From the NCBI GenBank assembly GCA_009693575.1, contig SHWZ01000005.1, positions 8,327 through 72,326 on the forward strand: 64,000 bases of DNA, written 5' to 3'. The notes beneath the pieces were generated by a model. That model did not search any database. It saw nothing but the letters and a program-made list of their open reading frames with translations, and was not told the origin of the DNA. This DNA is from Flavobacteriaceae bacterium. GTDB lineage: Bacteria > Bacteroidota > Bacteroidia > UKL13-3. A program made the translations under genes and the position numbers. Of the stretch, positions 2,682-23,929 are shown piece by piece. Every line of letters begins with the position of its first letter. The first letter of the stretch is position 1.

Positions 2682-5273
2682 CTACCTATCCCAGTTCTCC
2701 CTGCGTTTGTTAAGTTTTAAATCCTGAAGCAAAGCACTTTTAGCTTTTATAGAAAACATGTACCGCTGCACAGGGCCCACAGGCACCCAACTGAAGTTCA
2801 TCTCCCAACAGTGTAGGTCACGGTGGATTGTTATTTCGGTGGTGGTAAGGTTTCTGTTTTCAATGTCATAGCCACTGCTGAGCCCCAGCTTCCACTTTTG
2901 TGTTAGTGTCAATTCTCCACGAAATTGGACGTTCTGCTGCATGGTTTTCGGTAGGCCAGGAGTTTGGTTGTAATACAAAATATAGTTGATGCTCAGGGTC
3001 CACGGTATCTCAAAATTTACATAGTCAATGGGGTTAGCCTCTACCATTTCCCGCTCTGTTTCGCTGCCATAATCACTTACCTTTTTGGCTTTCTTAAATT
3101 CCTGACTATTGAAAGAAGTGCCCATCGAAAGGTTGGCTGCTGTCATATTTCCCGCATGCCATTTGTGCTTCTTGAAAAGCAGTGTATCCGTCCGTCTTCC
3201 TCCAATATATTGGTAGGGGTCGGCCTGCCCACCAAAGGCCAGCGACACCTTTTTGAAGAGAGTTGTGCTGCCGCTCATAGTCATGTTCGACAACTTGTTT
3301 TTGGCTGCTAAAAAATTATAGTTACCATTAAAATTCAGGTTGTCAATGATGCTCATTTTCTCTACCGTTCGGGCAGTGTCATTTGTCTTCTTTTTATATT
3401 TCAATTCAAAATTATTCCCAATATTGTAGCCAATGCTACCCACTGCCCCGCTACTGGTGCCACCCACGGGCGAGCCTTCATATATATAGTAACGCTCAGG
3501 ATATTTCAGGCTCGAATCCTTTCGGTAAAATTCGTAGAAGCCATATTTGTCGCCACCAAAGTCAGGAGTATAGTTAAGACTTAGGCTGGGTGTGATGGTA
3601 TGCCGCAATGCCATCAGATTGAATTTATTTATATTAAAAAAACCAAACACCCGTGTACTCAATTGTGCAGAAGCTCCATACTGATAAGCACGGCCAAAAG
3701 CTGGTTGAGAATTGCTCAATACCTTACCTGAATTGAGGTCGTATTGCTTTTCTATTTTCTGCGAATACCACCATTCGTTATAGTTGAGCGAAGGTGTTAG
3801 AAAAAAGTATTTCAGGACTTTCACCTGCGGTAATTGAATGGGAATATTGTGCGAAATGCCATTTTTCATACTGTCGGCAATGGTGGGACTCAGCAGATTT
3901 TCATCCTTGACGTTTATCTGATTCAACAAATGACTATTATAGCCAATGCGAATATTTTCATACCAACGCAGCTCGCCCACTTGCACTTTTCGGGCAAATG
4001 GCGAAAAGCTATTCACGTTGAACGCCACATCAGGCAGCGACAGCGAAACATCACGGGTTTGTGTGTTCTGCGAATGGCGGAGAGCGGCAGTCAAACTATA
4101 TCTTCCTTTGCCAAATACTTTCCCGTAATTCACGTTGCTAGCAAGTGTGTTTTGGGTAATGTCGTTGAAGCCAAGCCCAGGCACAGTGCGGTTGTAGCTG
4201 CTGCTTTGTGCGTTTATGTTCAGATTGAAAGTAGTCCCCGGCTTGGCCTTAGCATTCACATTGTGTAGCCAACTGATTCGAAACGATTTGTTCTGTTGAA
4301 ACTCACTCGGCACATCTTTGTCTCCAGTGAAGAGATTATTATATTCGAAATTAAAATTGCCACTAAACTTATACAGCTTCACATATTGCGAAGCCACCCT
4401 GCCGCCCCAGCTACCATTGGCATATATATCGCTCATCAGTTTCAAATCCATAAAATGCCCCAAAGGAAGGTAGTAGCCAGCCCCACGCAAAAAGTGGCCA
4501 TAGCCCAGCGAATAGCCGTATGTAGGAATGATAATCCCCCGCTTCTGCCCTTGCATAAGCGGGAAGAAGGCAAAGGGAATGAAAGCTGGAGTAGGCACAT
4601 CAAGCACCATCAACTGGGCAGGGCCACTCACTATCTGTTTCTTGGGTATAATCTTCAACTTCTTTACCCGGATATGAAAGTGTGGGTTCAGTGTGTCAAT
4701 ACAAGTACTGTAGCGGGCATTTTGGCCATAAAGGTTGTCATCGGGGTCTTTCTTTACTTCTTCGCAATACACAATGCCGTCGCCCTCCTTGGTCGCCAGT
4801 CCGCTTATCCGTCCTCTTTTTGTTTTAAAATTGTAGGCAAGTTTATCGGATATATAGCTTTTATCGCCATCCTTAAAATCGGGTTTGCCGTAAGCCCGGC
4901 CGAGGCTGTCGGTCATTGGGAAGGCATGCAGGGTATTGTCGCTGAAATTGATTTTGGCGTAGGCCGACTTCAACTGTATTTGTTCATAATTCATGTTTGC
5001 ATTGCCCCACAGATGCACCGTTTTGCCGGGCAGATCAAAATAGATGGAGTCACTTGCAGTATAACTTACTTTGCTTTTCAGGGCATCCTTCCCAACGCGT
5101 AGAGAGTCGCTCTCAGCAAGGCATAAAGCAGTATCCGACTTCAACGAATCTGTTTGTGCATTTCCCAACAACGGACACAATAAAAGACAACCGAACAACG
5201 TTACGGGGATAAAAAACTGCCGACTTTGACTCTTGGCCGAATTATTGAAAATACTTTTGCGTTTTATATCCAA
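2682..5273 (-). CDS. lptD: Putative LPS assembly protein LptD (OstA-like N-terminus + beta-barrel)
   Basis: Bacteroidota LptD-like motifs KLAYNFKTKRG and IHRDLHCWEMNFSWVP...SALLQDLK. Start set to TTG 5273 by inference from a promoter at 5295-5302; the track start at 5555 overlaps the amidase. Confidence 0.85.
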   Translation of the reverse strand: MDIKRKSIFNNSAKSQSRQFFIPVTLFGCLLLCPLLGNAQTDSLKSDTALCLAESDSLRVGKDALKSKVSYTASDSIYFDLPGKTVHLWGNANMNYEQIQLKSAYAKINFSDNTLHAFPMTDSLGRAYGKPDFKDGDKSYISDKLAYNFKTKRGRISGLATKEGDGIVYCEEVKKDPDDNLYGQNARYSTCIDTLNPHFHIRVKKLKIIPKKQIVSGPAQLMVLDVPTPAFIPFAFFPLMQGQKRGIIIPTYGYSLGYGHFLRGAGYYLPLGHFMDLKLMSDIYANGSWGGRVASQYVKLYKFSGNFNFEYNNLFTGDKDVPSEFQQNKSFRISWLHNVNAKAKPGTTFNLNINAQSSSYNRTVPGLGFNDITQNTLASNVNYGKVFGKGRYSLTAALRHSQNTQTRDVSLSLPDVAFNVNSFSPFARKVQVGELRWYENIRIGYNSHLLNQINVKDENLLSPTIADSMKNGISHNIPIQLPQVKVLKYFFLTPSLNYNEWWYSQKIEKQYDLNSGKVLSNSQPAFGRAYQYGASAQLSTRVFGFFNINKFNLMALRHTITPSLSLNYTPDFGGDKYGFYEFYRKDSSLKYPERYYIYEGSPVGGTSSGAVGSIGYNIGNNFELKYKKKTNDTARTVEKMSIIDNLNFNGNYNFLAAKNKLSNMTMSGSTTLFKKVSLAFGGQADPYQYIGGRRTDTLLFKKHKWHAGNMTAANLSMGTSFNSQEFKKAKKVSDYGSETEREMVEANPIDYVNFEIPWTLSINYILYYNQTPGLPKTMQQNVQFRGELTLTQKWKLGLSSGYDIENRNLTTTEITIHRDLHCWEMNFSWVPVGPVQRYMFSIKAKSALLQDLKLNKRRENWDR

Positions 5274-5302
5274 AACAGATTCCTGATGAAGTTGCGAAAT
5301 TA
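5252..5302. promoter_or_regulatory. Overlapping divergent Bacteroidota -7 promoter elements (amidase +, lptD -)
   Basis: TACTTTTG at 5252-5259 (+) and TAATTTCG at 5295-5302 (-) match the TAnnTTTG consensus or its TAnnTTCG variant. Confidence 0.55.
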
Positions 5303-6062
5303 CAGATTTATTATCCCCCTCACCGCCATTGCTGTGTTTTTGTGCGTTTCTTTCAAAAATCCGAAAGCAATAATAAAGACAATAGTGATTGATGCCGGCC
5401 ACGGAGGCCACGATGTAGGATGCCATTACGGTGGCAAAAACGAAAAGGACATTACCCTGAAGGTGTCGCTGTTGCTGGGTCAGATGCTGCGAGACAGCTT
5501 TCCTGAGGTCGGGGTGATATTCACCCGAAGTAGCGATAGTTTCGTGGAGCTTCATGAAAGAGCGAACATTGCTAACAGAAATAATGCCGACTTTTTCATT
5601 TCAGTACATGTGAACGCAAGCACAAGTACAACAGCCTACGGCACAGAGACCTATGCTATGGGTTTGCATAAAACAGAAGGTAACTTGGCCGTAGCCAAAC
5701 GCGAAAACGAATCTGCTTTGTTGGAGAGCAACTACCAAAGCAACTACGATGGCTTCGACCCCAACAGCCCCGAGGGGAGTATTATTTTTACGATGTTCCA
5801 AAGCCAGTTTCTAAACCAAAGCCTGAAATTGGCCAGCAATGTGGAGCAAGAATTTAAGAAGACAAACCGTTATAGTCGTGGGGTAAAACAAGCTGGCTTT
5901 CTGGTACTTTGGAAAACTTCCATGCCTAGCATATTGGTGGAAACAGGCTACCTTAGCAATGCCATCGAACGTAAATTCCTAACTTCAGAAGACGGTCAAA
6001 TGGCAACTGCCCTATCCATTTTTGAGGCATTCAAGCAATACAAAAAAGATGCAGAGAAATAA
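5286..6062 (+). CDS. N-acetylmuramoyl-L-alanine amidase (Amidase_3)
   Basis: IVIDAGHGGHD, EKDITL, FISVHVN and SILVETGY motifs; start moved to ATG 5286. Confidence 0.95.
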   Translation: MKLRNYRFIIPLTAIAVFLCVSFKNPKAIIKTIVIDAGHGGHDVGCHYGGKNEKDITLKVSLLLGQMLRDSFPEVGVIFTRSSDSFVELHERANIANRNNADFFISVHVNASTSTTAYGTETYAMGLHKTEGNLAVAKRENESALLESNYQSNYDGFDPNSPEGSIIFTMFQSQFLNQSLKLASNVEQEFKKTNRYSRGVKQAGFLVLWKTSMPSILVETGYLSNAIERKFLTSEDGQMATALSIFEAFKQYKKDAEK

Positions 6063-6092
6063 ATTAGCGAAAATTTCGTCAACGTTTTACAA

Positions 6093-7466
6093 ATGACTTA
6101 TAGAATCAACGCTGTCTTTGCCATTCTATTTTTAGGGATTTCCGTTCCGCCTTTTGCCCAGTCTATTCATCCTAAGTTTGACCAACGCATATTCGATAAC
6201 CTTAAGAAAAACGGGCAGTTATTGGAAGGTCTTTTCAAAACATACGAGTTAAAACAGGTGGCAATAGCAAAGGTAAAAAATGCCATCGTCCTTGAAAACG
6301 GCTACGCCATGAGCAAGCTGAAAAATCCAGGAGATTGGCTGCGGATGCGGGAAGTTTATCAAGCTACACAGGTAGATTTGGTTTATACCAAATATCCCGT
6401 TGACAAAGAATTTTGGCTTACTGATTACCACGAATTGCTTGTGAAACGACTGGCTGAATTGTTCAAAGCCGATTCTTCACTGAACGACAACCGAATCAAA
6501 TGGAACCTGATACTTCAAACAGCTTGTGAAACTCAAGATGAGGCGAAAGCCATGTTTCATGGGTTTGTGATTAAATACGAAAAACGCAAAAAACCTATTG
6601 TGCTAAAGCCCGATGTGGCCATGACTCCATCAGAAAAAATTGACCGCTACTTGGTGGAGGTAGGAGGCATCAATGATTCACTTGTTTACAATACATTCGA
6701 CCAGCACAAAGCATGGACAAACGCCATGGTGGTAATGGATATGACGGGAAGCATGTACCAATACTCTCCTCAGGTGCTGCTGTGGCATATCAAAAATTCA
6801 GAACGAAGCGGCATCAAATTTTTCTGCTACTTCAACGATGGCGACAAAAAAGCGGAAGTAGATAAAAAGATAGGCGAAACGGGGGGAATCTATTTTGAGG
6901 ATGCGAACAAACCGGAGAAATTGGCAAAACTGCTGTATAAAGTGATGAAGGCCGGCTACGGTGGCGAAACCTTGGACGAAAACGACTTTGAAGCCATCAT
7001 AGCTGCAGAAAAAGAATACGCAGGCAAGTTTGAAAACCTAATCTTGGTGGCAGACAACACTGGTATCCGCGACTTTGAACTGATTGACAAAATAAAAAAC
7101 CCTATACGGGTGGTGCTTGTTGGCTGCGAATGGGGAATAAATGTGCAGTACATAAACCTGGCTTACCGAACGGGTGGCTCACTGTACACTATCAACGACG
7201 ATGTGACCGACATACTTACCAAAGTAAACGAAAAGAGGATCTTAGAAGTCAATGGCAACAAATACAAACTCAATAAACGCATCAACCTATTTGAATGCTA
7301 CGACGAAGAATATTGCCAGTACCAATTTCAGCAAGAAGAGCTGGCTGAGGGCAAAACCATTTCCTCCCTCAAATCCTCACCTGTTGGAAAGAAGATGTTC
7401 AAAGGCGTTAAAGGGCAGAAGCTCCCGAGCAAAAAGAAAAAAAAGAAATGGAATAGGGGGTATTGA
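6093..7466 (+). CDS. Secreted hypothetical protein with VWA-like domain
   Basis: Signal peptide, MIDAS-like VVMDMTGSM, END.EA..ILVADN, Lys-rich tail. Confidence 0.75.
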   Translation: MTYRINAVFAILFLGISVPPFAQSIHPKFDQRIFDNLKKNGQLLEGLFKTYELKQVAIAKVKNAIVLENGYAMSKLKNPGDWLRMREVYQATQVDLVYTKYPVDKEFWLTDYHELLVKRLAELFKADSSLNDNRIKWNLILQTACETQDEAKAMFHGFVIKYEKRKKPIVLKPDVAMTPSEKIDRYLVEVGGINDSLVYNTFDQHKAWTNAMVVMDMTGSMYQYSPQVLLWHIKNSERSGIKFFCYFNDGDKKAEVDKKIGETGGIYFEDANKPEKLAKLLYKVMKAGYGGETLDENDFEAIIAAEKEYAGKFENLILVADNTGIRDFELIDKIKNPIRVVLVGCEWGINVQYINLAYRTGGSLYTINDDVTDILTKVNEKRILEVNGNKYKLNKRINLFECYDEEYCQYQFQQEELAEGKTISSLKSSPVGKKMFKGVKGQKLPSKKKKKKWNRGY

Positions 7467-7539
7467 GGCTCACACCCAACCTCTGCCCGAGATATTTTTC
7501 CTTGTTCAGCATTGTAAATGTTGATTTTGTATAGGTTAA

Positions 7540-9060
7540 CTAAAGACTCTCTTTCCCCACAAATTGCTCCCAATCATCCTTTATTGAACCTTTTAGCACC
7601 CGTGGGAATTTGATTTGCCCTCCTTGTTTTCCTTTCAAGGCAAGAAACTCATTGAATTTTTCATTGGGTAGAAAGGTAAGGAAAATATAGGGGAGTGCGT
7701 GTTTGCGTTCAACAGCGTAGTCATCGTTCAGTTCGCAGATGCGTTGGTCAAGAAATTGCTTGAAAGTCTCCTTATCTACAAGCCTATCAGTGCCCACATA
7801 CCAGTGGTGAGCGTGTCGACCTTCATGGGTGTGGCCTATCACCGTATACTCATTGCTGATAATCCCAAACTTTTTGCAAGTATCGATCAACGCGGCATTC
7901 ATGTTGTCAACGGAAAGATGTTCGCCACAAAGACTGAGATAATGCTTGGTACGTCCGATTATTTTTATTTCAAATTTGGTGGTGTTAAGAAACTCAATGA
8001 CATCGCCAATGAAATATCGCCAAGCCCCAGAGCAGGTACTTATCAGCAGGGCATATTCAACATTGGGCTTCACATCTTTTATAGTCAAAAAATGAGCGTT
8101 GGCAAGCAGGTTTCCATCTGCATCGAAGTTATTCTCATCAAATGGTACAAATTCGTAAAATACCCCAGTGTTCAGTATCATTTTCATACCGGGGGCGTCG
8201 GGCTTGGTTTGGTAAGCAAAATACCCTTCGGAGGCCAAATAAGAATCCCAATAAGTAATCGGCTTGCCGCAGAGTTTATTCAGACTGTCTTTGTATGGGC
8301 TGATGGAAACGCCACCATGCACATACACCATAAAGTTAGGCCATATATCGTGGATATGGTTCAGGTCATATTCTTTGATAATGCGTTCCAATAGAATCTG
8401 AATCCAGGCAGGCACTCCGGCTATGATTCCAACATCCCAGCGGGGGGCATTTTTCACTATTTCGTCCAGTTTCTCTGCCCAGTTTTTCGTCCTGCGAATT
8501 GCTGGTTCGGGTTTAGTGAATGGTTCGTACCAAAATGGGACATGGCTTGTGGTAATTCCGCTGAGGTCACCACTATAATTTGTGCCATTAAAATTGAGGT
8601 CGGTGCTGCCACCAACCACGAGGCTATGTTTGGCAAAACAATCTTTTGGTATGGCTTTGCATCGCCCCGCTGCCACCACTTGCTTTATACTTGCCCGGCG
8701 GATAGCTTTGATGGTTTGCGAAGTGACAGGTATGTATTTACTTGACCCCTCAGAAGTGCCTGAACTAAGTGCAAAAAACTTAATATTTCCAGGCCAGGTC
8801 ACCGATTTCTCACCATCAAAAGCACGCTGCCACCAAGGGTGCATCTTTTCGTAGTCGTGCCAAGGCACTAGCTTTTGGTATTCTTGAACCACATGGTCGC
8901 TAAACACGATGTCGCTGAAATGGTATTCTTGACCAAAAGCTGTATTACCGGCCTTTAGAAGTAGCCGTTTAAGCACCTTCATTTGGGTGGCCTGTGCCCG
9001 AGCTGCGGCCGAAACACGGCGAAGGAGTGGGGATTTTACAATATCTGAAAGCAGGCTCAT
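7540..9060 (-). CDS. GH3 auxin-responsive promoter family protein (acyl-adenylate ligase fold)
   Basis: FALSSGTSEGSSKYIP, YLASEG and KQGGQIKFPRV motifs. Confidence 0.93.
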   Translation of the reverse strand: MSLLSDIVKSPLLRRVSAAARAQATQMKVLKRLLLKAGNTAFGQEYHFSDIVFSDHVVQEYQKLVPWHDYEKMHPWWQRAFDGEKSVTWPGNIKFFALSSGTSEGSSKYIPVTSQTIKAIRRASIKQVVAAGRCKAIPKDCFAKHSLVVGGSTDLNFNGTNYSGDLSGITTSHVPFWYEPFTKPEPAIRRTKNWAEKLDEIVKNAPRWDVGIIAGVPAWIQILLERIIKEYDLNHIHDIWPNFMVYVHGGVSISPYKDSLNKLCGKPITYWDSYLASEGYFAYQTKPDAPGMKMILNTGVFYEFVPFDENNFDADGNLLANAHFLTIKDVKPNVEYALLISTCSGAWRYFIGDVIEFLNTTKFEIKIIGRTKHYLSLCGEHLSVDNMNAALIDTCKKFGIISNEYTVIGHTHEGRHAHHWYVGTDRLVDKETFKQFLDQRICELNDDYAVERKHALPYIFLTFLPNEKFNEFLALKGKQGGQIKFPRVLKGSIKDDWEQFVGKESL

Positions 9061-9944: not shown

Positions 9945-11465
9945 ATGCAAACAATAAAACCAATAAAGAATGCACTGATTTCGGTGTACTACAAAGAGGG
10001 ACTGGAGCCAATCATCGCAGAAATGAAGCGGCTTGGTGTGATCATCTACTCAACAGGTGGCACACAAGACTTCCTTGAAAAACAGGGCATAGAAGTAATG
10101 CCGGTGGAAGATCTAACAGGCTACCCGAGTATTTTAGGTGGAAGGGTAAAGACACTGCATCCTAAAGTGTTTGGTGGCATACTTGGCCGCAGGGAAAACG
10201 AAACCGATATGGCTGAAATGCAACAATATGAAATCCCAGAGCTAGACTTAATTATTGTGGATTTATATCCGTTTGAAGAAACTGTAAAATCTGGTGCAGT
10301 AGAGGTCGAAATTATCGAAAAAATAGATATTGGTGGGGTTTCACTCATAAGAGCAGCTGCAAAAAATTTCATGCATGCTGCTATTGTTTCATCCAAAAAT
10401 GAATATGGCTTTTTGTTGGGGAAACTGCAATCTCAAAGTGGCACAACGTTAGAAGACCGAAGGCATCTGTGCAAGCAAGCATTTTTCACCACAGCACAAT
10501 ACGACAGCGAGATTTTAAAATATTTTTCTGGCAACCCGTTGGAGTTTCAGGCGGGGGCTTTTGGCTCACCAATGGGTTTGCGTTATGGTGAAAACCCACA
10601 TCAACAAGGTGCCTTTTTTGGTGATACAGAAAAATTGTTTGAACAACTGAATGGGAAAGAACTTTCGTATAACAACCTAGTGGATGTGGAAGCGGCAATG
10701 GAATTGGTTAATGAATTTGAGAAGCCCTCTTGTGTAATTATTAAACATACTAATGCTTGCGGAGCGGCTGAACGGGAAACAGCTTTGGACGCTTGGAGAG
10801 ATGCATTGGCGGGAGATCCAGTTTCAGCTTTTGGCGGAGTGGTAGCTTTTAATAGGGAAATAGATGCGGCTGTTGCAAAGGAAATTGACAGTATATTTTT
10901 TGAGCTACTGATTGCTCCTGCATTTACCAATGAGGCAATTGAAATTCTGAAATCAAAAAAGAACAGAATTGTATTGAAGTTGAAGAAATTTTCGCCAGCC
11001 AAATACCAACACAAATCATTGCTAGGGGGCGTGTTGGTGCAGCAAAAAGATATTTTTCAAGAACAAAAGACACACCTTAAAACGACTACAGAAAAGGCAC
11101 CAACCGAAGCAGAAATAAATGATTTACTCTTTGCTTTGCGATTGGTGAAACATACCAAAAGTAACACCATTGTGTTGGCAAAAAATAGACAGCTGCTAGG
11201 CAGCGGCTGCGGAATGACTTCGAGGGTGGATGCATTGAAACATGCTATCAAAAAATCCCAGGAATTTGGTTTTGATTTGAAAGGTGCTGTGATGGCAAGC
11301 GATGCTTTTTTTCCTTTCCCAGATTGTGTAGAGATAGCGAATGAGTCGGGGATAAAAGCAGTGGTGCAGCCAGGCGGTTCAGTGAAAGACCAACTTAGCA
11401 TTGACTACTGCAATCAACACCAAGTGGCCATGGTGTTCACAGGCATCAGGCATTTCAAACATTGA
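9945..11465 (+). CDS. purH: Bifunctional AICAR transformylase/IMP cyclohydrolase
   Basis: GRVKTLHP, LRYGENPHQ, SDAFFPF and RHFKH motifs; promoter TAATTTCG at 9923-9930. Confidence 0.98.
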   Translation: MQTIKPIKNALISVYYKEGLEPIIAEMKRLGVIIYSTGGTQDFLEKQGIEVMPVEDLTGYPSILGGRVKTLHPKVFGGILGRRENETDMAEMQQYEIPELDLIIVDLYPFEETVKSGAVEVEIIEKIDIGGVSLIRAAAKNFMHAAIVSSKNEYGFLLGKLQSQSGTTLEDRRHLCKQAFFTTAQYDSEILKYFSGNPLEFQAGAFGSPMGLRYGENPHQQGAFFGDTEKLFEQLNGKELSYNNLVDVEAAMELVNEFEKPSCVIIKHTNACGAAERETALDAWRDALAGDPVSAFGGVVAFNREIDAAVAKEIDSIFFELLIAPAFTNEAIEILKSKKNRIVLKLKKFSPAKYQHKSLLGGVLVQQKDIFQEQKTHLKTTTEKAPTEAEINDLLFALRLVKHTKSNTIVLAKNRQLLGSGCGMTSRVDALKHAIKKSQEFGFDLKGAVMASDAFFPFPDCVEIANESGIKAVVQPGGSVKDQLSIDYCNQHQVAMVFTGIRHFKH

Positions 11466-12370
11466 TGGGAAAAGTAGAACTTTTTTTTAATAAAAACCTT
11501 CCTTCGCGGGTTGATGAAATATATGACCCGCTCTTCGATGACAAGCAACTAAAAGTATATGTCAAGCGTGATGATCTGCTGCACCCACACATAAGCGGTA
11601 ACAAATGGCGGAAGCTAAAATACTTGCTTATGCAAGCAGAAGTGGAGAGCAAAAAGCATATTGTTTCTTTTGGAGGGGCTTACTCCAATCACTTACCTGC
11701 TTTGGCTGCAGCCTGTCATGAACTTGGGTTTGATTCAACGGGCATTATACGAGGAGAGGAACTGAATGATGAAAGCAATGCACAGCTTTCATTCTGCAAA
11801 AAAAAAGGAATGAACTTGATTTTTGTGGGGCGGGAAAAGTATAAAAATAAAAAACAAATTTTTGATGAATTTTTGGCATGGACACCAACCTCGGACAACC
11901 ATTTTGGACAAAGCAGCACTACACTATTTGTAGACGAAGGAGGCTACTCCATATTGGGAGCTAAAGGTTGTGAAGCAATCATTGATGAGTTGGAATGTGA
12001 ATATGATCATATAATTCTACCTGTAGGAACCGGAACTACTTTGGCAGGCATGGAGAATGCTATAAATCTATCAAAGACAAAACTTCACGGTATCGTAGTT
12101 TTAAAAGGTGCTGAATACTTGGCTGAGCAGATAAAGATATTAGCACCAGAAAGTACTAATTGGCAATTGCACCATCAATTTCATGCCGGTGGCTTTGCCA
12201 AGGCTACAAAGGAACTTCTAAAATTTATCCAAACAAAACAAATGGTTTGGAATATACCTTTTGAACCTGTTTATTCGGGCAAGATGGCCTTCGGGTTTTA
12301 TAGGTTGGCAAGTGAAGGATTGTTTGAAGAAGGGACAAAGGTGCTGATGGTGCATACGGGAGGACTTTAA
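11462..12370 (+). CDS. PLP-dependent ACC deaminase / D-cysteine desulfhydrase family protein
   Basis: KRDDL..ISGNKWRKL, SFGGAYSNH, EPVYSGK and HTGGL motifs. Confidence 0.92.
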   Translation: MMGKVELFFNKNLPSRVDEIYDPLFDDKQLKVYVKRDDLLHPHISGNKWRKLKYLLMQAEVESKKHIVSFGGAYSNHLPALAAACHELGFDSTGIIRGEELNDESNAQLSFCKKKGMNLIFVGREKYKNKKQIFDEFLAWTPTSDNHFGQSSTTLFVDEGGYSILGAKGCEAIIDELECEYDHIILPVGTGTTLAGMENAINLSKTKLHGIVVLKGAEYLAEQIKILAPESTNWQLHHQFHAGGFAKATKELLKFIQTKQMVWNIPFEPVYSGKMAFGFYRLASEGLFEEGTKVLMVHTGGL

Positions 12371-12441
12371 GTTAGTGACTCGTCCTAAAAAAAGTTTACA
12401 GTTTGCTCAACAAGGCTGATAAACAATTACCGAGTTAGCTA

Positions 12442-13035
12442 ATGGACTATTCCTACCTTTGCACTGTGCACGATATCGAACCCTATTTTAACTGGCGGAA
12501 CTTGTATACGAGTGAGAACGACCCTCGCTCACCTTACTACAAAAAAAAGCACAACGAGTTTGAATACCACAATAAAATTTACAACTTCCTTATTCACCCA
12601 CAATGGGATGAGTTTGGCTCAGCTACTTTATACTTGAAACTTCTTTTTGTAGATTATGCAGAAGGATATGCCGTTATTGAATTCATCGGCGAATGGAACG
12701 ATGCTGTGAACAACGACATCATGTGGTTAAAGCGGGAAGTGCTGGAGGTGCTGGCTACAGAGGGTATCGCTAAATATATACTCATTGGTGAAAACGTAAT
12801 GAACTTTCATAGCTCCGACGATTGCTACTACGAAGAATGGTTTCAGGAGGTGGGTGATGGTTGGATTGCTGCCATCAATTTCAAGAAACATGTGCAACAG
12901 GAATTTGGTAATGTGAATGTTGACTACTATCTCAATTTTGGCGGCGAACTGGACACCATGAATTGGCGTATACTTACTCCTCAATTGTTGTTTGAACGGG
13001 TGAGCTGGGTAATGGGTAGTCGGCTGGGAGCTTAA
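12442..13035 (+). CDS. Conserved hypothetical protein (possible STAS-like C-terminus)
   Basis: Clean 197-aa ORF, rich in aromatic and acidic residues (HPQWDEFGSATLYLK, IGENVMNFH). Confidence 0.75.
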   Translation: MDYSYLCTVHDIEPYFNWRNLYTSENDPRSPYYKKKHNEFEYHNKIYNFLIHPQWDEFGSATLYLKLLFVDYAEGYAVIEFIGEWNDAVNNDIMWLKREVLEVLATEGIAKYILIGENVMNFHSSDDCYYEEWFQEVGDGWIAAINFKKHVQQEFGNVNVDYYLNFGGELDTMNWRILTPQLLFERVSWVMGSRLGA

Positions 13036-13168
13036 TTCTAACTCACCATCCTACTGCCCAGTTAGATCAAAAGTAAAGTAACATGAGACCATAGTTGAAT
13101 AATCAAGACGTTTTGAAGCCAATTTGCGATAACACTTTATTTGTTTCAAGTTCAAGGTTACTTTTGTG

Positions 13169-16482: not shown

Positions 16483-16584
16483 AATGATTCAAATTAAAGC
16501 AACTACATCAAGCCTTCATTCGTTCTAACATTGCCCAAACTATTTTACCCAATTTGCCCAATTCACATACTTTACCTAATAATA

Positions 16585-17589
16585 ATGAAACGCAACCTCA
16601 TACTACTTCTTCTACTTCTATTGGCTTCGGGAGGCTATTGGCTTTTCAGCAAAGGATATTTCTCAAGCAAAAAGCCAGAGTTAAGTGATTTTGCGGTAGC
16701 CGACTCCAATAGCATCACCAAGATATTTTTGGCCGACAGGCTAGGAAATACGGTGACCTTGGAGCGGAAAGATGAAGTGTGGATGGTAAATGGAAAATTT
16801 GAAGCCCACCGAGGATATTTGAAGCAATTGCTACAGACAGTAACCAAAGTGCAAGTGAAAAGCCCAGTGCCTAAAGAGCAATTTAACGGGGTGGTGAAGG
16901 ACATAGCTGCCCAGCATGTTAAAGTAGAAATATACCAAGACAACGAATTAGAGAAGACCTACTATGTGGGCAACAGTACCCTGGACCGAATGGGAACTTA
17001 TATGCTCATGGACGGCAGCAGCTCTCCCTTTATATGTGAACTGACAGGGTTTGAGGGTTTTCTTACCCCTCGCTACATAACCAACGAACTCACATGGCGA
17101 AACAAGTGCATTTTCAATGTGCCATTGGAAAAGGTGAATAGTGTTTCTCTTAACTATACTGACAGCCCCAGCTTAGGTTTCACACTTACATGGAGCGGCA
17201 ATACTTTTCAGCTCAATGATGGCTTTGGCAAGGCAAATTCTTGGATTGTAGATACAGGTATGGTGCATTACTATCGTGGTTTGTTTGCAGGTGTTTATGC
17301 CGAAGCTTTCGGCACTGTGGAGTCCAGTGAAAATGTAGATTCTATCAGGAAATCAAAGCCCTGGTGTCTCTTGACAATTAAAAGCAACGAAAGGACTAGT
17401 TCCCTAGCAATCTATAAAAAGGGAGTAGACATACGTACCAAGATGCAGTACGATACCCAAGGCCGCCCTAATGGTTTCGATACAGAACGATACTATGCCT
17501 TCCTGAATGATGTCAATGAACCGATGCTAATTCAGGATTATGTGTTTGGAAACATACTGCGAAGGGCTAGAGATTTTGTAAGGAAATAA
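16585..17589 (+). CDS. DUF4340-like membrane-anchored protein
   Basis: N-terminal TM helix, W.VNG..A and GFEGFLTPRY motifs; typical position after gldG. Confidence 0.75.
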   Translation: MKRNLILLLLLLLASGGYWLFSKGYFSSKKPELSDFAVADSNSITKIFLADRLGNTVTLERKDEVWMVNGKFEAHRGYLKQLLQTVTKVQVKSPVPKEQFNGVVKDIAAQHVKVEIYQDNELEKTYYVGNSTLDRMGTYMLMDGSSSPFICELTGFEGFLTPRYITNELTWRNKCIFNVPLEKVNSVSLNYTDSPSLGFTLTWSGNTFQLNDGFGKANSWIVDTGMVHYYRGLFAGVYAEAFGTVESSENVDSIRKSKPWCLLTIKSNERTSSLAIYKKGVDIRTKMQYDTQGRPNGFDTERYYAFLNDVNEPMLIQDYVFGNILRRARDFVRK

Positions 17590-17662: not shown

Positions 17663-19552
17663 ATGAGCGACCCAATAAAACATGAGTGTGGAATCGCACT
17701 CATACGCCTGCTTAAACCCCTTGATTATTATAGGCAGAAATATGGCTCATCGTTGTATGGCCTAAAAAAGCTGTACCTGCTGATGGAAAAACAACGCAAC
17801 CGCGGCCAGGACGGTGCAGGGGTAGCCACCATCAAACTTGATCCAGAGCCAGGAAGCCATTATATAAACCGTCACCGCAGCTACGAAAGCAATGCGGTAA
17901 CCGATATTTTTTCTGAGATTTATAGGCAGATGCCCACCGATCAAGCAAAACTTGCCGATTCAGATTGGTTGAAGCAAAACGTACCCTATATGGGTGAACT
18001 GCTGATGGGTCACCTTCGCTACGGCACACATGGAAGCAATAGTGTAGACAAATGCCACCCAATGATTCGGGACAATAACTGGATGAGCAGAACATTGGTT
18101 CTTGCAGGTAATTTTAATCTTACTAATGTAGACGAGCTTTTCAATACTTTAGTAGAACTTGGGCAACATCCGATAGAGAAAGGTGACACAGTTACAGTAC
18201 TTGAGCGTATAGGCCATTTCTTGGATGAAGAAGTACAAGCAGAGTTTGAAGGATATAAAAGCAAGGGATTCGACAACCCACAAATAACCCAATTGATAGC
18301 GGACGGTATTTCGGTAGAGAAAGTCCTGAAACGAGCAACTAAAAAATTTGATGGAGGCTATGCTATTGCAGGTATGATTGGCCATGGAGACGGATTCGTG
18401 ATGCGTGATCCCAACGGCATTCGCCCAGCATATTACTACCATAACGACGAGATAGCTGTGGTGGCTAGCGAACGCCCTGCTATACAAACGACATTCAATC
18501 TTCAATACGAAGATATTTTGGAAGTGCCGCCTGGGTCAGCTCTCATTATTCGCAAAGATGGAAGGATTTATGAAGCACAAATAAACCCAGTGGCAGAGAA
18601 CAAAGCTTGTAGTTTTGAGCGGATTTATTTCAGCAGAGGCAACGATGCAGAAATATACAAGGAGCGAAAAATGCTTGGAAGATTGATTTCACCTATTGTG
18701 TTAAGTGCGGTCGACCACGACACGCAAAGCACCGTCTTCAGCTATATCCCTAACACTGCCGCCACCTCCTTTTATGGTATGATAGACGGGGTGCTTTCTT
18801 ATTTGGATGAATATAAGCGACAGGCTATAATGAACCTAGGGGGCAACATCACCGAAGAAAAGCTGACCGAAATATTAAGCCTGAAACCACGAAGAGAAAA
18901 GATAGCTGTGAAGGACGTAAAGCTTCGCACTTTCATAAGTGATGATACAAGCCGTGATGACCTAGTAGCACATGTCTACGATGTCACCTATGGTATCATT
19001 CGCTCTGGCAAAGACAATTTGGTAGTAATTGACGATTCCATTGTGAGGGGAACCACTCTTAAAAACTCCATCATTCGAATCCTTGACAGACTAAATCCCA
19101 AACGTATCATTATCGTTTCATCTGCTCCGCAAATCAGATACCCGGACTGCTATGGTATAGACATGAGCAGGTTGGGTGAATTTGTAGCATTTCAGGCCAT
19201 GATAGCCTTGGTGAAGGAAAGTGGCCAAGAGGATTTGCTAAAAGAAACATATGACCGATGCAAGATGATGCTTAGCATTCCGAAAGAGAACAATGTAAAT
19301 TTGGTAAAAGCCCTTTATGATCTATTTTCAGCGGATGAAATTACTCGAAGAATAGCTCAAATAATAACACCTGATGATGTGAAAGCAGAAGTACAGGTTA
19401 TTTATCAAACTATTGAAAATCTCCATATAGCTTGTCCTAAAAACCTCGGTGACTGGTATTTTTCTGGTAATTACCCAACTCCAGGGGGAAATAAGGTTGT
19501 AAATAAAGCTTTCATCAACTTTATGGATGGTGTGCATGAAAGGTCGTATTAA
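17663..19552 (+). CDS. purF: Amidophosphoribosyltransferase (long Bacteroidota type)
   Basis: HECG N-terminal nucleophile, RGQDGAG, GHLRYGT, VVIDDSIVRGTT and YPDCYGID motifs; promoter TAACTTTG at 17638-45. Confidence 0.96.
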   Translation: MSDPIKHECGIALIRLLKPLDYYRQKYGSSLYGLKKLYLLMEKQRNRGQDGAGVATIKLDPEPGSHYINRHRSYESNAVTDIFSEIYRQMPTDQAKLADSDWLKQNVPYMGELLMGHLRYGTHGSNSVDKCHPMIRDNNWMSRTLVLAGNFNLTNVDELFNTLVELGQHPIEKGDTVTVLERIGHFLDEEVQAEFEGYKSKGFDNPQITQLIADGISVEKVLKRATKKFDGGYAIAGMIGHGDGFVMRDPNGIRPAYYYHNDEIAVVASERPAIQTTFNLQYEDILEVPPGSALIIRKDGRIYEAQINPVAENKACSFERIYFSRGNDAEIYKERKMLGRLISPIVLSAVDHDTQSTVFSYIPNTAATSFYGMIDGVLSYLDEYKRQAIMNLGGNITEEKLTEILSLKPRREKIAVKDVKLRTFISDDTSRDDLVAHVYDVTYGIIRSGKDNLVVIDDSIVRGTTLKNSIIRILDRLNPKRIIIVSSAPQIRYPDCYGIDMSRLGEFVAFQAMIALVKESGQEDLLKETYDRCKMMLSIPKENNVNLVKALYDLFSADEITRRIAQIITPDDVKAEVQVIYQTIENLHIACPKNLGDWYFSGNYPTPGGNKVVNKAFINFMDGVHERSY

Positions 19553-19662: not shown

Positions 19663-19695
19663 TTTGGGAAGTGTTTGGGAAGACATCTACTTTTG
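19663..19695 (+). promoter_or_regulatory. Promoter with tandem TTTGGGAAG direct repeat
   Basis: TTTGGGAAG at 19663 and 19674 (11-bp period); TACTTTTG at 19688-95. Confidence 0.55.
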
Positions 19696-19720: not shown

Positions 19721-21316
19721 ATGAGACACATGAATAAAAAGCTACAAAAAAATCTTTATACAATAGTTTTTGTGTGTGTCAGCCTCGGGGCATTTGCTCA
19801 AGGTCAACAAGCAGACAAATACTTATACGTGAGCAAGCAGACTGGTGAGTTTTGCCAGTTTCAAGGCGGTCAGGGTAAAACTACTGATAAGTATGAGCAT
19901 GGTGGAGTAACCAATGTGGTTGTGGATGGCCCCATCCAATATCAGGTGAACCCTGCCGACATGACCATAGGCATTAACCAAACCAAGAACTGGCAAGGTA
20001 AAGTGTGGCCAATCTTGGCACAATGCCCTGCTCCAGGTAACTCTGTGTGGTCAAAGCTAATAGCCCACTACGATGTGACCTATAGCCGCCCTCAAGGGGT
20101 TGGTATGGGTGGCAATGTGCAATCTACCTACGAATGTGGTGCAGGTTCTATTGACGATGGCTGTGCATTTCACGGCCCTGCTGGTGGCACCCACGAAATA
20201 ATAAATAAGATTGGTACTGAAGAACAGCCTTTCGAGGTGTTCAGTATCAACTGTGTTATTCCTGCGGCATTCACTTGCCAAAATGGAACAGCTACTCTTC
20301 ATGCTGACATTTACCCTGGAAACGGTGGCGATGTTACTTGGCAGACTCCTTTTGGGCAGTTGCAAGGAAATGACATCACTGTGAACCTCCCCGCCAATTT
20401 TAACAATATACCTGTAACTGCTACTTATACTGTATGTGGTTGCAGTTACACAGCCCAAGGCGTTATTCGTCCTAATAATTTTACTGGCTTTGGTCTACCT
20501 TGCTGCGTTAGCGGTACACAAGTTGTGGCCAATATAGCTGTTCTTCAGTTCGATGGCCCGTGTTGGCCTCCAGTAGTCTTCAGCCAAGCGGCTGTAGCCC
20601 CAATGCCCGACATGATGACTGCCGCACACACGGTTACGGCAATTTCGAATGGAGTGCCTTTTGTGGCTTCGACTGTGGCAGTTGCCGAAAACAATACTTG
20701 GACATACACCCCACTTGCAGTTGACTTTACCAAACTGGGCAAAATAGTAGAGACTATTGCCGATGCTGTGAAAAGCGTATCCGGCTCCCCATTTAGCCCA
20801 AGTGTAAATGTTACTGGTCAAATAAACATAGGCTCTGGAAAAATTTGTTGCCCAGGATTACCGAATTGCGTTCAAAACGCTGACAAAATTGAAGGACAAG
20901 TAGGTGTGGGAGCTTCTTTAAGTTGCCGATTCCCAGTATACGGAATACCTTATGTAGCCTCACTCGATGCTTTGCTTGATGTGGGGGTAAATGCTTCAGT
21001 AGGAGCAAATATAACAACTACTTGTACGGACCCTAAGGCTTGTATTACAGGAGCTGCTTCACTCACTCTTGGCCTTGGCCTTGGCCTGTCGCTAGCTGGT
21101 GGACTTGTAACCGCCGACCTGCGTGCAGTAGTCGAAGGTGCAGGGGTTGAACTCCAATATTGTTTTTTACCTGCACCTGCTACAGCAGCCTATACAGTAA
21201 CCCTTGGCAAGATAAAAATTGTTGGGTCAGTTACTACGCTAGAAATATTCAACTACTCGGTAGAGTATGTATTGTTTGAAGGCTGGCAGTCGGGCCCGCA
21301 TCCAATCAATCTTTAA
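19721..21316 (+). CDS. Secreted cysteine-rich hypothetical protein
   Basis: 531 aa with a signal peptide (AFA/Q) and 19 Cys; beta-rich; no recognised family. Confidence 0.85.
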   Translation: MRHMNKKLQKNLYTIVFVCVSLGAFAQGQQADKYLYVSKQTGEFCQFQGGQGKTTDKYEHGGVTNVVVDGPIQYQVNPADMTIGINQTKNWQGKVWPILAQCPAPGNSVWSKLIAHYDVTYSRPQGVGMGGNVQSTYECGAGSIDDGCAFHGPAGGTHEIINKIGTEEQPFEVFSINCVIPAAFTCQNGTATLHADIYPGNGGDVTWQTPFGQLQGNDITVNLPANFNNIPVTATYTVCGCSYTAQGVIRPNNFTGFGLPCCVSGTQVVANIAVLQFDGPCWPPVVFSQAAVAPMPDMMTAAHTVTAISNGVPFVASTVAVAENNTWTYTPLAVDFTKLGKIVETIADAVKSVSGSPFSPSVNVTGQINIGSGKICCPGLPNCVQNADKIEGQVGVGASLSCRFPVYGIPYVASLDALLDVGVNASVGANITTTCTDPKACITGAASLTLGLGLGLSLAGGLVTADLRAVVEGAGVELQYCFLPAPATAAYTVTLGKIKIVGSVTTLEIFNYSVEYVLFEGWQSGPHPINL

Positions 21317-21338
21317 TTTTTCAAGACCCATTGAAGTC

Positions 21339-22262
21339 ATGAAAAATATCATTCTAGCAAGTTTGATGGTGAATACATTCATCGCCGTCTCAGCAGAAGA
21401 CCGCATCCCCAAGTTTGAGGTTGCTCCGGTTGAAGTAGCTTTTTCTGCCACATTCACTGGAATACAGCCTGATGCCTCGCACAAGTCAGGCGACAACCTT
21501 ATTTACAAATTCACCGGCCAAGTGTTTGGCCCTGGAATGGACGGACAACTACAACTCGAAGGTTTCAGCGGCAAAACAGACCGCAAGACACCTTGGGAAA
21601 CACTCACCGAACTGGTGAACGCATACAAAAGGAAAGACTACGAAAAGATAATGTCCTTATATAGCAAAGTCAGCCGCGATGATTTGGATGCTATGCTGGC
21701 TGGCGACATGAAAGACAAATACCTGAACCATATAGGCAAAATACAGTCAGCACAGATTATTGCTGGATTTGAATACAAAGGTGGTTTCTTGGTAATATAC
21801 CAAGCCAAGGGAATAGGCATGAGCACCTGCTACATGACCCAAAGCAAAAAGAAGTTTCTGATTACTGCTTTCAAAGACGATGGCCCTGAGTCTTGGAACC
21901 TGTCACTATATTTCAAGTTCAAGCCTGAGCCAATGAAGCAACCTGAATTGATTACCAAAATGGATAGCTTTGAAGTATCAGACAGCAAAAGCTTTTCGTT
22001 CCGCCTGAGCAAGCCCGGCAATTGGCTGGTGGTGTTCAAAGACAAAGTAGGCGAAGGCACTCTTTATAATGCCCAAGATGGTAGCAACGGCGATGTAAAC
22101 AAAGAAGAAGGTGTAATGGATGTGGAGTTCAACAGCCGCAAGGTTTCGTCAAACAAAGACTACACACTCTACGCGGTGGAAACAAACTACCCCGTAACCA
22201 TGGTGACCGAAACATTGATAAAAAATGCCATGAGGTTTGGCTTCAGGGTTTACAAGAAATAA
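21339..22262 (+). CDS. Exported hypothetical protein (possible NTF2-like central domain)
   Basis: Signal-peptide-like N-terminus from ATG 21339; TPWETLTELVNAYKRKDYEKIMSLYS helix pair. Confidence 0.8.
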   Translation: MKNIILASLMVNTFIAVSAEDRIPKFEVAPVEVAFSATFTGIQPDASHKSGDNLIYKFTGQVFGPGMDGQLQLEGFSGKTDRKTPWETLTELVNAYKRKDYEKIMSLYSKVSRDDLDAMLAGDMKDKYLNHIGKIQSAQIIAGFEYKGGFLVIYQAKGIGMSTCYMTQSKKKFLITAFKDDGPESWNLSLYFKFKPEPMKQPELITKMDSFEVSDSKSFSFRLSKPGNWLVVFKDKVGEGTLYNAQDGSNGDVNKEEGVMDVEFNSRKVSSNKDYTLYAVETNYPVTMVTETLIKNAMRFGFRVYKK

Positions 22263-22279
22263 CCATAGATAACTTGACG

Positions 22280-22309
22280 AAAAGGCCGCTTACTTTGGGC
22301 GGCTTTTTT
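22280..22309. terminator. Bidirectional intrinsic terminator
   Basis: AAAAGGCCGC-loop-GCGGCTTTTTT between convergent genes. Confidence 0.85.
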
Positions 22310-22315
22310 AGTGTA

Positions 22316-23929
22316 TCAATGTTGAACTACTAACTTAATTGGTCTACTTAAGCCGATTTGCAACACATAAATTCCCGCAGCTAAATCTGCAATACGAAGG
22401 AGATTAATCCCTGCATGTAGCTGCTGATTTAATAGTGCTTTACCACTAATGTCAATTATGTTGGCAACGGCGATATTCGTTATTTCTATTGAAATTACAT
22501 CAGTCGCCGGATTTGGAAAAACGTTTAATTGCCTTGAGGCAACTTCTGCCACACCAATAGTACAGTTCATATCATTCAAGTATTTCAACGGCTTGTAGGC
22601 ATTCAGTCGGCCACCGCTTTTGGTGATGGTGGCAAGGGCAGTATTTGAGTCTGTATTGTTGAGCAGGATGCTGATAAGATCGGAAGCTATGGAGTCAGGC
22701 TTTTGGTTGTATAAGTGCAAATACTTGGGGCAAGCTGCCGAAAACATCAAACCCACCACCCCTGCTACTTGCGGACTGGCAAAGGAAGTGCCGCCGTCTT
22801 CGGTATATCCGTTGGAGGTGGTGGTGCAGAGTATATCTACTCCAGGAGCTGCAATATCCACTGCGTTTTTGCCGTAGCCACAGCCATTAACCTTTTTGTC
22901 GTCACGGTCGGTACTTGTCACCATTATCAAAAACTTGCTGGAGCAACTTGTTGGAATATCAAAGCTGGTGTCAATATTTTGAGAGAAGTTGGAAGTGCTT
23001 GCCACCGAAATTATCCCCGCCTTGCCCAGCGAATCATACATTCTGCACCAAATAGGGAAATCAGCAGGCATGCCAAAATCAACCCCAAAGGAGGAGTTGA
23101 CACAGACCACAAAAGCCCCCTTTTGTCCGTTGCTGTTGTTATACATCCTTCTCATTTTCAGGATATATGCATAACTCTCCACCACACTGCTTTCTACATT
23201 GGTGAAGCAGGCCACAGGCAGCATCTTTATGTTCCAGTTCACACCCGAAATGCCAATCTTATTATTACCCGTTGCCCCAATAATACCCATCACTTGTGTG
23301 CCGTGGGGAAGTGGGAGAATATTGTCGTTGCCATTGGGAACATCCAGCCCACGATAGTCGTCTTTGTAGCCATTGCCGTCATCATCGAGGTTGTTGCCGG
23401 GTATTTCATTGCGGTTCACAAAAAGGTTGGCCACCAAGTCGGGGTGGTTCAAATCCATGCCGCCATCCACCATGGCTACCACAATGGTATCTCCATTTTT
23501 AGTGACCCCGCCTGTGCTAATGTCCCATGCTTTAGTAACGGCAATATCCGCCCCGGCAGTGCCACCATTTTGACCCGTATTCAGCAAACCGTATTGTTGG
23601 GCAAACAAGCTGTCGTTGGGTGTTTTGCTTCGCAATGTCACGCGGTGGTTTAGCTGCACTGCATCTACTTCGGGCAAGGTGTTCATTGCATCCAAGGCTT
23701 GCTCATCCGTATATTTTTTTGCATCATATTGCAGCAACCACAGCCCCATCTCCATCGAAATCTTTTGCTTTACTTGGATGCCATCCGGCAAATGCGTGAC
23801 AAGGGATTCAAAGTCATCAGCTTGTTTCAGGGCTACTATTAGTTCCCCGGCAACAGCATTGGTTTGTGCCGAAACACTCAACCGAAGAAGGCAGGAGAAA
23901 AGCAGAGGTGCTATTGTCAAACGGAGCAT
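22316..23929 (-). CDS. S8 subtilisin-like serine peptidase with T9SS type A C-terminal domain
   Basis: Catalytic triad motifs VAMVDGG, HGTQVMG and GTSFASPQVAG; CTD VFPNPA...GIYVL. Confidence 0.95.
   Translation of the reverse strand: MLRLTIAPLLFSCLLRLSVSAQTNAVAGELIVALKQADDFESLVTHLPDGIQVKQKISMEMGLWLLQYDAKKYTDEQALDAMNTLPEVDAVQLNHRVTLRSKTPNDSLFAQQYGLLNTGQNGGTAGADIAVTKAWDISTGGVTKNGDTIVVAMVDGGMDLNHPDLVANLFVNRNEIPGNNLDDDGNGYKDDYRGLDVPNGNDNILPLPHGTQVMGIIGATGNNKIGISGVNWNIKMLPVACFTNVESSVVESYAYILKMRRMYNNSNGQKGAFVVCVNSSFGVDFGMPADFPIWCRMYDSLGKAGIISVASTSNFSQNIDTSFDIPTSCSSKFLIMVTSTDRDDKKVNGCGYGKNAVDIAAPGVDILCTTTSNGYTEDGGTSFASPQVAGVVGLMFSAACPKYLHLYNQKPDSIASDLISILLNNTDSNTALATITKSGGRLNAYKPLKYLNDMNCTIGVAEVASRQLNVFPNPATDVISIEITNIAVANIIDISGKALLNQQLHAGINLLRIADLAAGIYVLQIGLSRPIKLVVQH

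Follow-up and report, generated by a model that had tools for sequence, protein, structure and literature searches.

A stretch of 64,000 nucleotides (nt) from a Flavobacteriaceae bacterium (contig SHWZ01000005.1; termed here the window) carries two adjacent genes, P1 and P2. P1 encodes an exported cysteine-rich protein of two modules, and P2 encodes an exported, charged partner protein. The P1-P2 pair appears to be one half of an envelope system of four genes in the order X-P1-P2-Y, to which it would contribute the cargo and its partner, and P1 itself appears to be a fusion of two independently shuffled modules. An earlier note on this DNA had termed the pair an orphan two-gene operon. That description is not upheld, as the four genes X-P1-P2-Y are contiguous in the metagenome loci L058–L061. 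The reading that we tentatively prefer, at somewhat less than an even chance, is that P1 is an exported membrane-inserting effector whose C-terminal module is held by P2 as a periplasmic partner.

The P1 open reading frame (ORF) is at nt positions 19721–21316 and has a translated sequence of 531 amino acids (aa); P2 is at positions 21339–22262 and has 307 aa. Both sets of coordinates include the stop codon, and these and the other features of the pair given below are on the + strand. The two ORFs and the 22 nt spacer between them (21317–21338) are present as the earlier note had described. The P2 start is placed at the ATG at position 21339; the listed ORF extends back to 21267, and the homologue alignments begin at 21339. 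Both proteins appear to carry Sec-type leaders. In P1 the signal peptide comprises residues 1–26 (19721–19798) with cleavage after the motif AFA, i.e. after A26, as read from the sequence by eye, and a hydrophobic N-terminus is conserved in the P1 alignment. P2 also displays a signal peptide by eye; its mature chain has 288 residues and 27% of its residues are charged, in agreement with the prior description of it as exported and charged.

P1 has 19 Cys residues, 18 of them past the predicted signal peptide, and these include a CxC pair (C239/C241) and two CC pairs (C261–262 and C376–377). The count and the pairs are those that had been noted previously. Conservation within P1 is highest in the N module, which encompasses residues ~35–250 (19823–20470). 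Its second half is weakly Ig-like (E 0.04). The C module encompasses residues ~253–531 and has three parts. The first, at residues 253–336 (20477–20728), bears Cys residues, is poorly conserved (19%–49% identity to relatives) and is probably a beta domain. An amphipathic helix follows at residues 337–353 (20729–20779). A single such helix had been proposed, and a low-confidence AlphaFold model displays one at residues 337–351. The remainder, residues 355–531 (20783–21313), is a strand-rich core, made of long beta-hairpins that are amphipathic and have conserved Cys at their turns.

This core had been described as alternating strands of Gly and small hydrophobic residues, and the composition bears this out. 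The hydrophobic moment of the beta dyad has a z-score of 5.0 relative to shuffled sequences (4.5 in a repeat); Gly makes up 13% of the residues, charged residues 10% and aromatic residues 6.8%. The dyad pattern is kept across 36 aligned relatives. Residues C377, C435, C441 and C481 are invariant in the 36 sequences, and six to eight Cys are conserved in the C module.

P1 and P2 have no match in Pfam, NCBIfam, PADLOC or the PDB sequences, either as single sequences or as profiles, and the earlier statement that neither family could be recognized holds. The same searches gave nothing usable for X, Y, the N module or the C module. For P2, no NTF2/SnoaL-type match was found in Pfam, where the only match is to DUF1266 at E 0.2, and a 9-member P2 profile has no match among PDB sequences. 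The C-terminal sorting domain of the type IX secretion system (T9SS; type A, Por_Secre_tail, PF18962) is not matched by P1 or P2 at E ≤ 1, and P1 is without such a domain as had been proposed; Por_Secre_tail is matched by the adjacent S8 peptidase and by two NHL proteins of the same genome. In the ESM Atlas the best score for the C module is 0.89, to unnamed clusters, and this is under the trustworthy level.

A word-index search detected six full-length P1 homologues (42%–56% identity) and two P2 homologues. With the P1 profile, an exhaustive search of 1.84 billion representatives retrieved 218 proteins at E ≤ 1e-3, of which 155 were re-scored for module content. The N module alone is present in 67, the C module alone in 54 and both modules in 21, and 13 fall under neither criterion. 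The alignment of the C-only proteins begins at P1 profile position ~253. The two modules also differ in position. The N module starts within 65 residues of the N-terminus in 66 of the 67 N-only proteins. The C module is at the protein end in all 75 proteins whose match reaches the end of the profile, with 14 residues or fewer left in 68 of them. The C-terminal residue is F, W or Y in 29 of the 75 and non-aromatic in the other 46.

The sequences joined to the N module include RHS repeats (P0156), Galaxin-like repeats, Calx-beta domains and uncharacterized regions of ~750 aa. In three proteins (P0090, P0082 and P0110) of 347–364 aa the N module is combined with a Cys-rich end that displays similarity to group XII secreted phospholipase A2 (PLA2G12-like, E 3e-7 to 1e-6, under the Pfam cut-off). 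The motif HDxCY, which we take to be the catalytic motif of secreted phospholipase A2, is visible in P0082. The His is also found in P0110 and is absent from P0090, and two of the three proteins display a His-Asp pair.

In proteins of ~270–410 aa the C module occurs by itself, preceded by a leader and a stretch rich in Pro or Cys, and some C-only proteins have a common "AGPD" repeat at the N-terminus. It also terminates large proteins with Kelch and PKD, Big_7 and Glucodextran_B, PA14 or LGFP domains. In P0152 a truncated C-module match is followed by a CBM_4_9 domain. Two large proteins with the C module last, P0158 and P0125, are from bacteria outside Bacteroidota and display a PEP-CTERM motif at residues 170–222, remote from the C-terminus; such a position points either to a fusion of two gene calls or to an architecture out of the ordinary.

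With clean profiles, the N module was found in the window's genome (G000) alone among 351 sampled Bacteroidota genomes, and the C module in G000 and, marginally, in G515 (E 2.6e-4) among 401. Seven candidates per genome were scored in these searches and the result is to be read as "not found in those searched". The marginal relative (L074, G515 contig C24, 7108–11648) has 403 aa and ends in F. Its upstream neighbor is a 327 aa outer-membrane-like gene, and downstream are a 372 aa secreted protein and then a 239 aa protein like an outer-membrane protein (OMP). The neighbor of the G515 C module aligns with P2 at an hhalign probability of 0.4%, and the surrounding region has no X, Y or P2 profile match.

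The pairing of P1 with P2 is conserved. In a survey of 119 genomes of the order, all from one family, full-length P1 is found in six and P2 is directly downstream in the same six (in G051 the contig end falls within P2). Among named genome records the pair is present in three of four, the fourth contig stopping 208 nt past P1, and it is present in seven of seven metagenome contigs with full-length P1. Conservation of the gene pair across genomes had been set as a check, and adjacency held for every full-length P1 found. The genes that flank P1-P2 vary among locus groups. Each genome has one P1 copy and no spare partner genes, and P2 is confined to genomes with full-length P1 and is not present in those with other N-module proteins.

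The two genes also appear to diverge together. For 11 loci with 10 different sequences, the tree of P1 and that of P2 display the same four groups, and the pairwise identity values for the two modules and P2 are correlated (r 0.95–0.96). The identity between G000 and genus g8 is 67% for the N module, 53% for the C module and 50% for P2; between G000 and a g7 genome the values are 45%, 37% and 25%. The purF-like protein encoded upstream of P1 has 75% identity between G000 and both genera. The P1-P2 pair, judged by these identities, appears to diverge faster than housekeeping genes.

A distant locus, L063, supports a link between the C module and P2 that is independent of the N module. It has a C-only protein of 411 aa with no N module, and the next gene encodes a 456 aa protein whose first 190 residues match the N-domain of P2, i.e. 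residues 20–197 (21396–21929) (hhalign probability 84%, E 7e-6; hmmsearch with the 9-member profile, E 3.7e-10). The remainder of the 456 aa protein consists of thrombospondin type 3 repeats. Here a C module and a P2 N-domain appear to be paired at ~22% identity in an unrelated architecture.

The complex of the C module (residues 253–531, 36-row alignment) with mature P2 (residues 20–307, 9-row alignment) was modeled. The interface score ipSAE is 0.70, 0.71 and 0.75 (median 0.71) and the best of three controls is 0.00. Of 157 solved complexes 116 attain the ipSAE mark, as compared with 2 of 215 mismatched pairs; these counts are a rough guide only, since our own alignments were used. At least 50% of the contacts are common to the runs, and the partner has a model confidence (pLDDT) of at least 82 (for P2, 82–84 within the complex). 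No solved complex of this type was found by sequence among the PDB sequences. The model supports binding of the C module by P2 and, together with the co-divergence of the pair, the earlier proposal of a dedicated partner.

On the P1 side the predicted interface comprises the turns at 405–414 and 457–464, the last hairpin at 505–522 and helix residues 344 and 348, and it falls on the most conserved motifs of the C module. On the P2 side it comprises residues 92–193, which belong to the domain common to the L063 neighbor, and a few C-domain residues; the N-domain bears most of the interface. A strand-edge contact is predicted between P1 506–512 and P2 162–165 and 175–180. By this prediction P2 would clamp the C-module sheet at one of its ends.

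The single-chain AlphaFold2 models are poor (P1 pLDDT 48 with a 7-row alignment, P2 pLDDT 39 with a 3-row alignment). The low-confidence P1 model displays the helix at 337–351 and then seven to nine strands of ~20 residues; Foldseek with this model gave no match in PDB at E ≤ 1e-3. VIA-align of model residues 325–531 places outer-membrane barrels nearest, at a root-mean-square deviation (rmsd) of 4–8 Å, and this is a lead only: CymA (Z 10.4, rmsd 5.5 Å, 167 residues aligned), BtuB (Z 10.0), the NalP translocator (Z 9.6), EspP (Z 9.1), and also Hbp and AIDA-I. A Z of 7–8 is typical of models without a true match. At face value the model topology has the conserved Cys at strand ends and turns, and the predicted P2 contacts at one end of the sheet, on every other turn.

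These features suggest the main rival explanation, namely that P1 is an autotransporter-like protein displayed on the surface and not a toxin, with the C module as a small outer-membrane beta-barrel anchor, single or oligomeric. P2 would then either assist assembly as a periplasmic chaperone or cap the turns of the barrel on the periplasmic side. We consider this unlikely as a whole, although it retains an appreciable share of the probability, and it accounts better than the effector reading for the adhesin-type proteins, the 29 aromatic ends and the barrel-like model. It is consistent with the invariably terminal C module, with the presence of this module after adhesin-type domains (Kelch/PKD, Big_7, PA14, LGFP) in large proteins, with a helix immediately before the strands, and with a dyad pattern that places small residues on one face. 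The VIA-align neighbors, the P2 contacts on alternate turns and on the helix, and the position of RNA-library contigs on P1 (see below) also favor it. However the model has a pLDDT of only 50–68 in this region and the Z values are to be read against the background given above. No Pfam autotransporter or OMP family is matched in 48 C-module members. There are only ~175 strand residues, with 6.8% aromatics as compared with 11%–14% in Y, and 46 of the 75 modules are without an aromatic end. Six to eight conserved Cys would be unusual for a membrane barrel, the truncated module of P0152 precedes another domain, and P1 would be hardly more than a handle plus an anchor.

X and Y are the other half of the proposed system. 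X has ~480 aa and is secreted; its Ig-like domains are of the TIG and Big_2 types, an FGLP-type motif is conserved at its C-terminus, and its match to DUF928 is sub-threshold. Y has 685–736 aa, is aromatic-rich (11%–14%) and Cys-free, has an Ig-like region at the start and a C-terminus rich in aromatics, and we infer that it is an outer-membrane protein. The Y protein and its alignment have no ShlB, POTRA or Omp85 match in Pfam, NCBIfam or the PDB sequences. A Y homologue scores 0.97–0.98 in the ESM Atlas to unnamed clusters of ~670 aa in other phyla, with no Pfam assignment.

In locus L025, X and Y are ~2 kb from P1-P2 and on the opposite strand. In G000 they are together on another contig (C7, locus L066) at positions 3279–4709 and 5396–7603. 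The gap of ~680 nt between them (4713–5395) has no ORF of 100 aa or more, and the X-Y spacing in genus g8 is ~35–85 nt. In some metagenome contigs P1-P2 occupy the position of the X-Y gap; hidden Markov models (HMMs) of P1 and P2 detected no remnant in the G000 gap. Two tandem NHL-repeat proteins with T9SS sorting domains are encoded at 10226–13105 (− strand) of L066, 3–5 kb from the X-Y locus.

The distribution of X and Y follows that of the N module. The genomes of the order that have an N-module protein (10 of 119) are exactly the 10 in which X is found at E ≤ 1e-60, and Y is found in every one of them at E ≤ 1e-105. Among the other 109 such an X is found in none and such a Y in one (G024). 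Related genomes are non-independent samples, and these counts make the link look stronger than it is. However, in genus g2 the N-module protein, X and Y are all present in three of 25 genomes and all missing in the other 22, and since these 22 belong to the same genus the link is not one of simple shared ancestry. The G009 operon has X, a 1001 aa N-module protein, a 596 aa secreted fn3 protein and Y. The 596 aa protein, which is in the P2 position, was compared with P2 and rejected as P2-like (probability 2%).

Weaker X-like genes (DUF928-like, 24.6 bits as compared with a cut-off of 26) adjoin Y-like genes in many other genomes of the order, and these pairs look like a wider, unannotated family of envelope gene pairs. 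One such pair is followed by an OmpH/Skp-like chaperone gene (L069, G116 contig C7) and another by a 1616 aa protein (L068, G047 contig C4).

These distributions bear on the explanation that there is no special system, i.e. that P1 and P2 are ordinary periplasmic or surface proteins whose adjacency and link with X and Y come from shared ancestry. All full-length pairs are from one bacterial family and from similar lake metagenomes, and kinship inflates the counts as stated above. This explanation is nevertheless very improbable, as the pair stays together while its flanks change, the X/Y co-occurrence is patchy within the single genus g2, a C module and a P2 N-domain recur together in the unrelated architecture of L063, and the binding prediction passes its controls.

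The four-gene layout, with an outer-membrane-like protein and Ig-domain proteins, also brings to mind a surface fiber. P1 would be a subunit polymerized outside the cell through its Gly/small-hydrophobic strands, Y the channel, X an accessory protein or nucleator and P2 an anti-aggregation chaperone, by the logic of curli, Fap and chaperone-usher systems. Strands rich in Gly, Ala, Ser and Val, a partner predicted to lie over a strand edge, and the OmpH/Skp-like chaperone gene in one related X-like/Y-like cluster are in line with a fiber. Yet P1 is without repeats of the amyloid-subunit type and matches no curli, Fap or usher family, and the C module is a single disulfide-stapled terminal unit that is also fused to large globular proteins. 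A fiber is thus quite improbable, although slightly less so than the absence of a special system.

We return to the preferred reading, that of an exported membrane-inserting effector. The N module would serve X and Y as a handle with which to bring the protein onto the outer membrane or across it. It is likened to the handle of polymorphic effectors because it is always N-terminal, has swappable heads and has two dedicated envelope genes. In sister proteins the same handle would carry RHS repeats or a phospholipase-A2-like domain, and because of these other heads the C module may be regarded as one of several alternative effector heads, most likely a membrane-inserting beta-sheet or pore. The C module resembles such a head in its invariably C-terminal position and in that the next gene encodes a co-diverging exported protein with predicted binding to it. 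Amphipathic hairpins over nearly the whole domain, low charge and disulfide staples point to a membrane-active head. P2 would remain in the periplasm, where it would keep the C module harmless and competent for export, as an immunity protein, a chaperone or both. A periplasmic binder is presumably what a producer needs for self-protection or for export competence of the C module.

Several observations weigh against this reading. No family of toxins, pore-formers or immunity proteins that is known is matched by the C module or by P2. Within the P1 family the two modules diverge together, without the head-swapping typical of polymorphic toxins, and each genome has a single copy with no extra partner genes. 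In other phyla the C module ends Kelch, PKD, Big_7, PA14 and LGFP proteins, which are adhesin-like and not classical toxin carriers. The 29 of 75 C modules that end in F, W or Y resemble outer-membrane barrels in this respect, as does the low-confidence model of residues 325–531, whose best likenesses include autotransporter translocators. P2, at 288 mature residues, is large for an immunity protein, the PLA2-like matches are under the Pfam threshold, the single-chain models are poor (pLDDT 48 and 39), and a physical link between the N module and X or Y is putative.

A more specific form of the reading is that X-P1-P2-Y is an undescribed outer-membrane export pathway of Bacteroidia, similar to two-partner secretion in its logic and without relation to it in sequence, in which Y and X recognize the N module on Sec-delivered effectors with swappable heads, the C module being a new family of disulfide-stapled membrane-inserting beta toxins and P2 a new family of periplasmic immunity proteins. 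We regard this as rather doubtful, a little more so than the anchor.

Downstream of P2 is a terminator, a hairpin with a U run on its 3′ side (22279–22309), which is common to P2 and the convergent S8 peptidase gene that it abuts. The region 22263–22318 folds at −20 kcal/mol (z −4.24) and equal folding was obtained in 0 of 200 shuffles, so that the closing terminator proposed earlier is present; it is absent from the output of a simple terminator scan. The earlier note had also given the pair its own promoter. A promoter-like motif (TTTG, 21 nt, TACTTTTG) is at 19663–19695, 26 nt 5′ of the P1 start, and it matches what we take to be the Bacteroidetes −33/−7 promoter consensus. This makes an own promoter plausible by position only, as the pattern has three matches in the window compared with 3.9 expected by chance and is not enriched. 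A terminator-like hairpin followed by a T-rich run is also found at 21143–21155, within the 3′ end of the P1 coding sequence, and could reduce read-through to P2.

The neighbors are those named earlier, purF and an S8 peptidase. The 5′ neighbor encodes a class-II glutamine amidotransferase (purF-like, 629 aa) that ends at 19552 and leaves a gap of 168 nt before P1. A DUF4340 protein with an N-terminal membrane anchor is encoded 5′ of the purF-like gene (16531–17589). The 3′ neighbor, which is convergent, is the S8 peptidase with the T9SS sorting domain.

The full-length pairs were found in one family of freshwater Bacteroidia. The P1-P2 stretch is present in freshwater and lake metagenome runs from eight studies, and two of these runs are possibly the source of the window. 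In addition, six contigs from three lake metatranscriptome runs (two studies) match the stretch, all within the P1 coding region; P2 and the flanks are uncovered, from which nothing follows, and RNA libraries can contain DNA.

X, P1, P2 and Y are all without a curated family, yet together they appear to make up a system that is coherent and conserved and looks expressed, in lake Bacteroidia that are abundant and have small genomes. Should the N module serve X and Y as an export handle, Bacteroidota would have a route of secretion besides the T9SS and the type VI secretion system, with the C module, the phospholipase-like domain and the RHS repeats as its cargo heads. The C module is present in at least 75 representative proteins of several architectures and has no known fold, and would be a new domain family whether it is a toxin head or an anchor. 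On the preferred reading, X-P1-P2-Y would comprise a secreted effector of modular build, its cognate partner and an outer-membrane component dedicated to it, all of families that are undescribed as far as a limited literature search goes.

Five kinds of known system may be compared with it. Like P1, beta-barrel pore-forming toxins (aerolysin/ETX-MTX2, leukocidin) are secreted and have amphipathic hairpins rich in Gly, Ser and Thr, with lectin-like or Ig-like domains fused to the membrane-active part; they normally have no immunity gene. P1 differs in that it has no Pfam match to the aerolysin/ETX-MTX2, leukocidin or MACPF families and no confident fold match from its poor model, and in that nearly all of a domain of ~175 residues is amphipathic and not a single stem hairpin.

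The anchors of type Va and trimeric autotransporters are at the extreme C-terminus and consist of a helix and then amphipathic strands with small residues on one face. The C module is similar in its terminal position, in its helix and strands and in the adhesin-like domains upstream of it in some proteins, and its low-confidence model superposes in part on translocator domains at Z 8.3–9.6. The similarity does not extend to family matches, as P1 and 48 C-module proteins have no Autotransporter or OMP match. The strands are shorter, Cys-rich and aromatic-poor, the terminal aromatic is inconsistent, and a dedicated partner gene is not an autotransporter feature. The type Va barrel has 12 strands and a threaded helix, whereas the low-confidence model of the C module has seven to nine strands in ~175 residues.

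In two-partner secretion (TpsA/TpsB) and in the contact-dependent inhibition system CdiBAI, a recognition domain of ~250 residues at the N-terminus is used with a dedicated outer-membrane protein, the C-termini are variable and the gene after that of the exoprotein is protective. By analogy, P1 has an N module after the signal peptide, an outer-membrane-like Y in the operon, varied C-termini among its relatives and a partner gene that follows. However the N module lacks a match to Haemagg_act/TPS, and Y, which starts with an Ig-like region, lacks one to ShlB, POTRA or Omp85. There is also an additional Ig-domain protein, X, and the partner P2 would be periplasmic.

The TANFOR-domain polymorphic toxins of Bacteroidetes are closer in phylogeny. 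[quoted passage not shown] As far as that text goes, they are like P1 in the Sec leader, in an N-terminal domain of unsettled mechanism, in variable C-terminal heads, in a cognate downstream gene and in being confined to Bacteroidota. They are unlike P1 in that the P1 head is not a nuclease or other known toxin and differs from the TANFOR heads listed, that P2 is exported and that the N module has the dedicated genes X and Y. P1 matches no family at E ≤ 1 in the copies of NCBIfam and Pfam used, in which the presence of a TANFOR model is unconfirmed.

Polymorphic toxins in general have a conserved N-terminal trafficking domain that is common to proteins with different C-terminal heads. A conserved N-terminal domain and different heads are seen here as well, in the 67 N-only, 21 two-module and 54 C-only proteins. 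In addition, the gene downstream of P1 is adjacent in all loci and its product is predicted to bind the head in silico, a pattern in which protection and chaperone roles would look alike.

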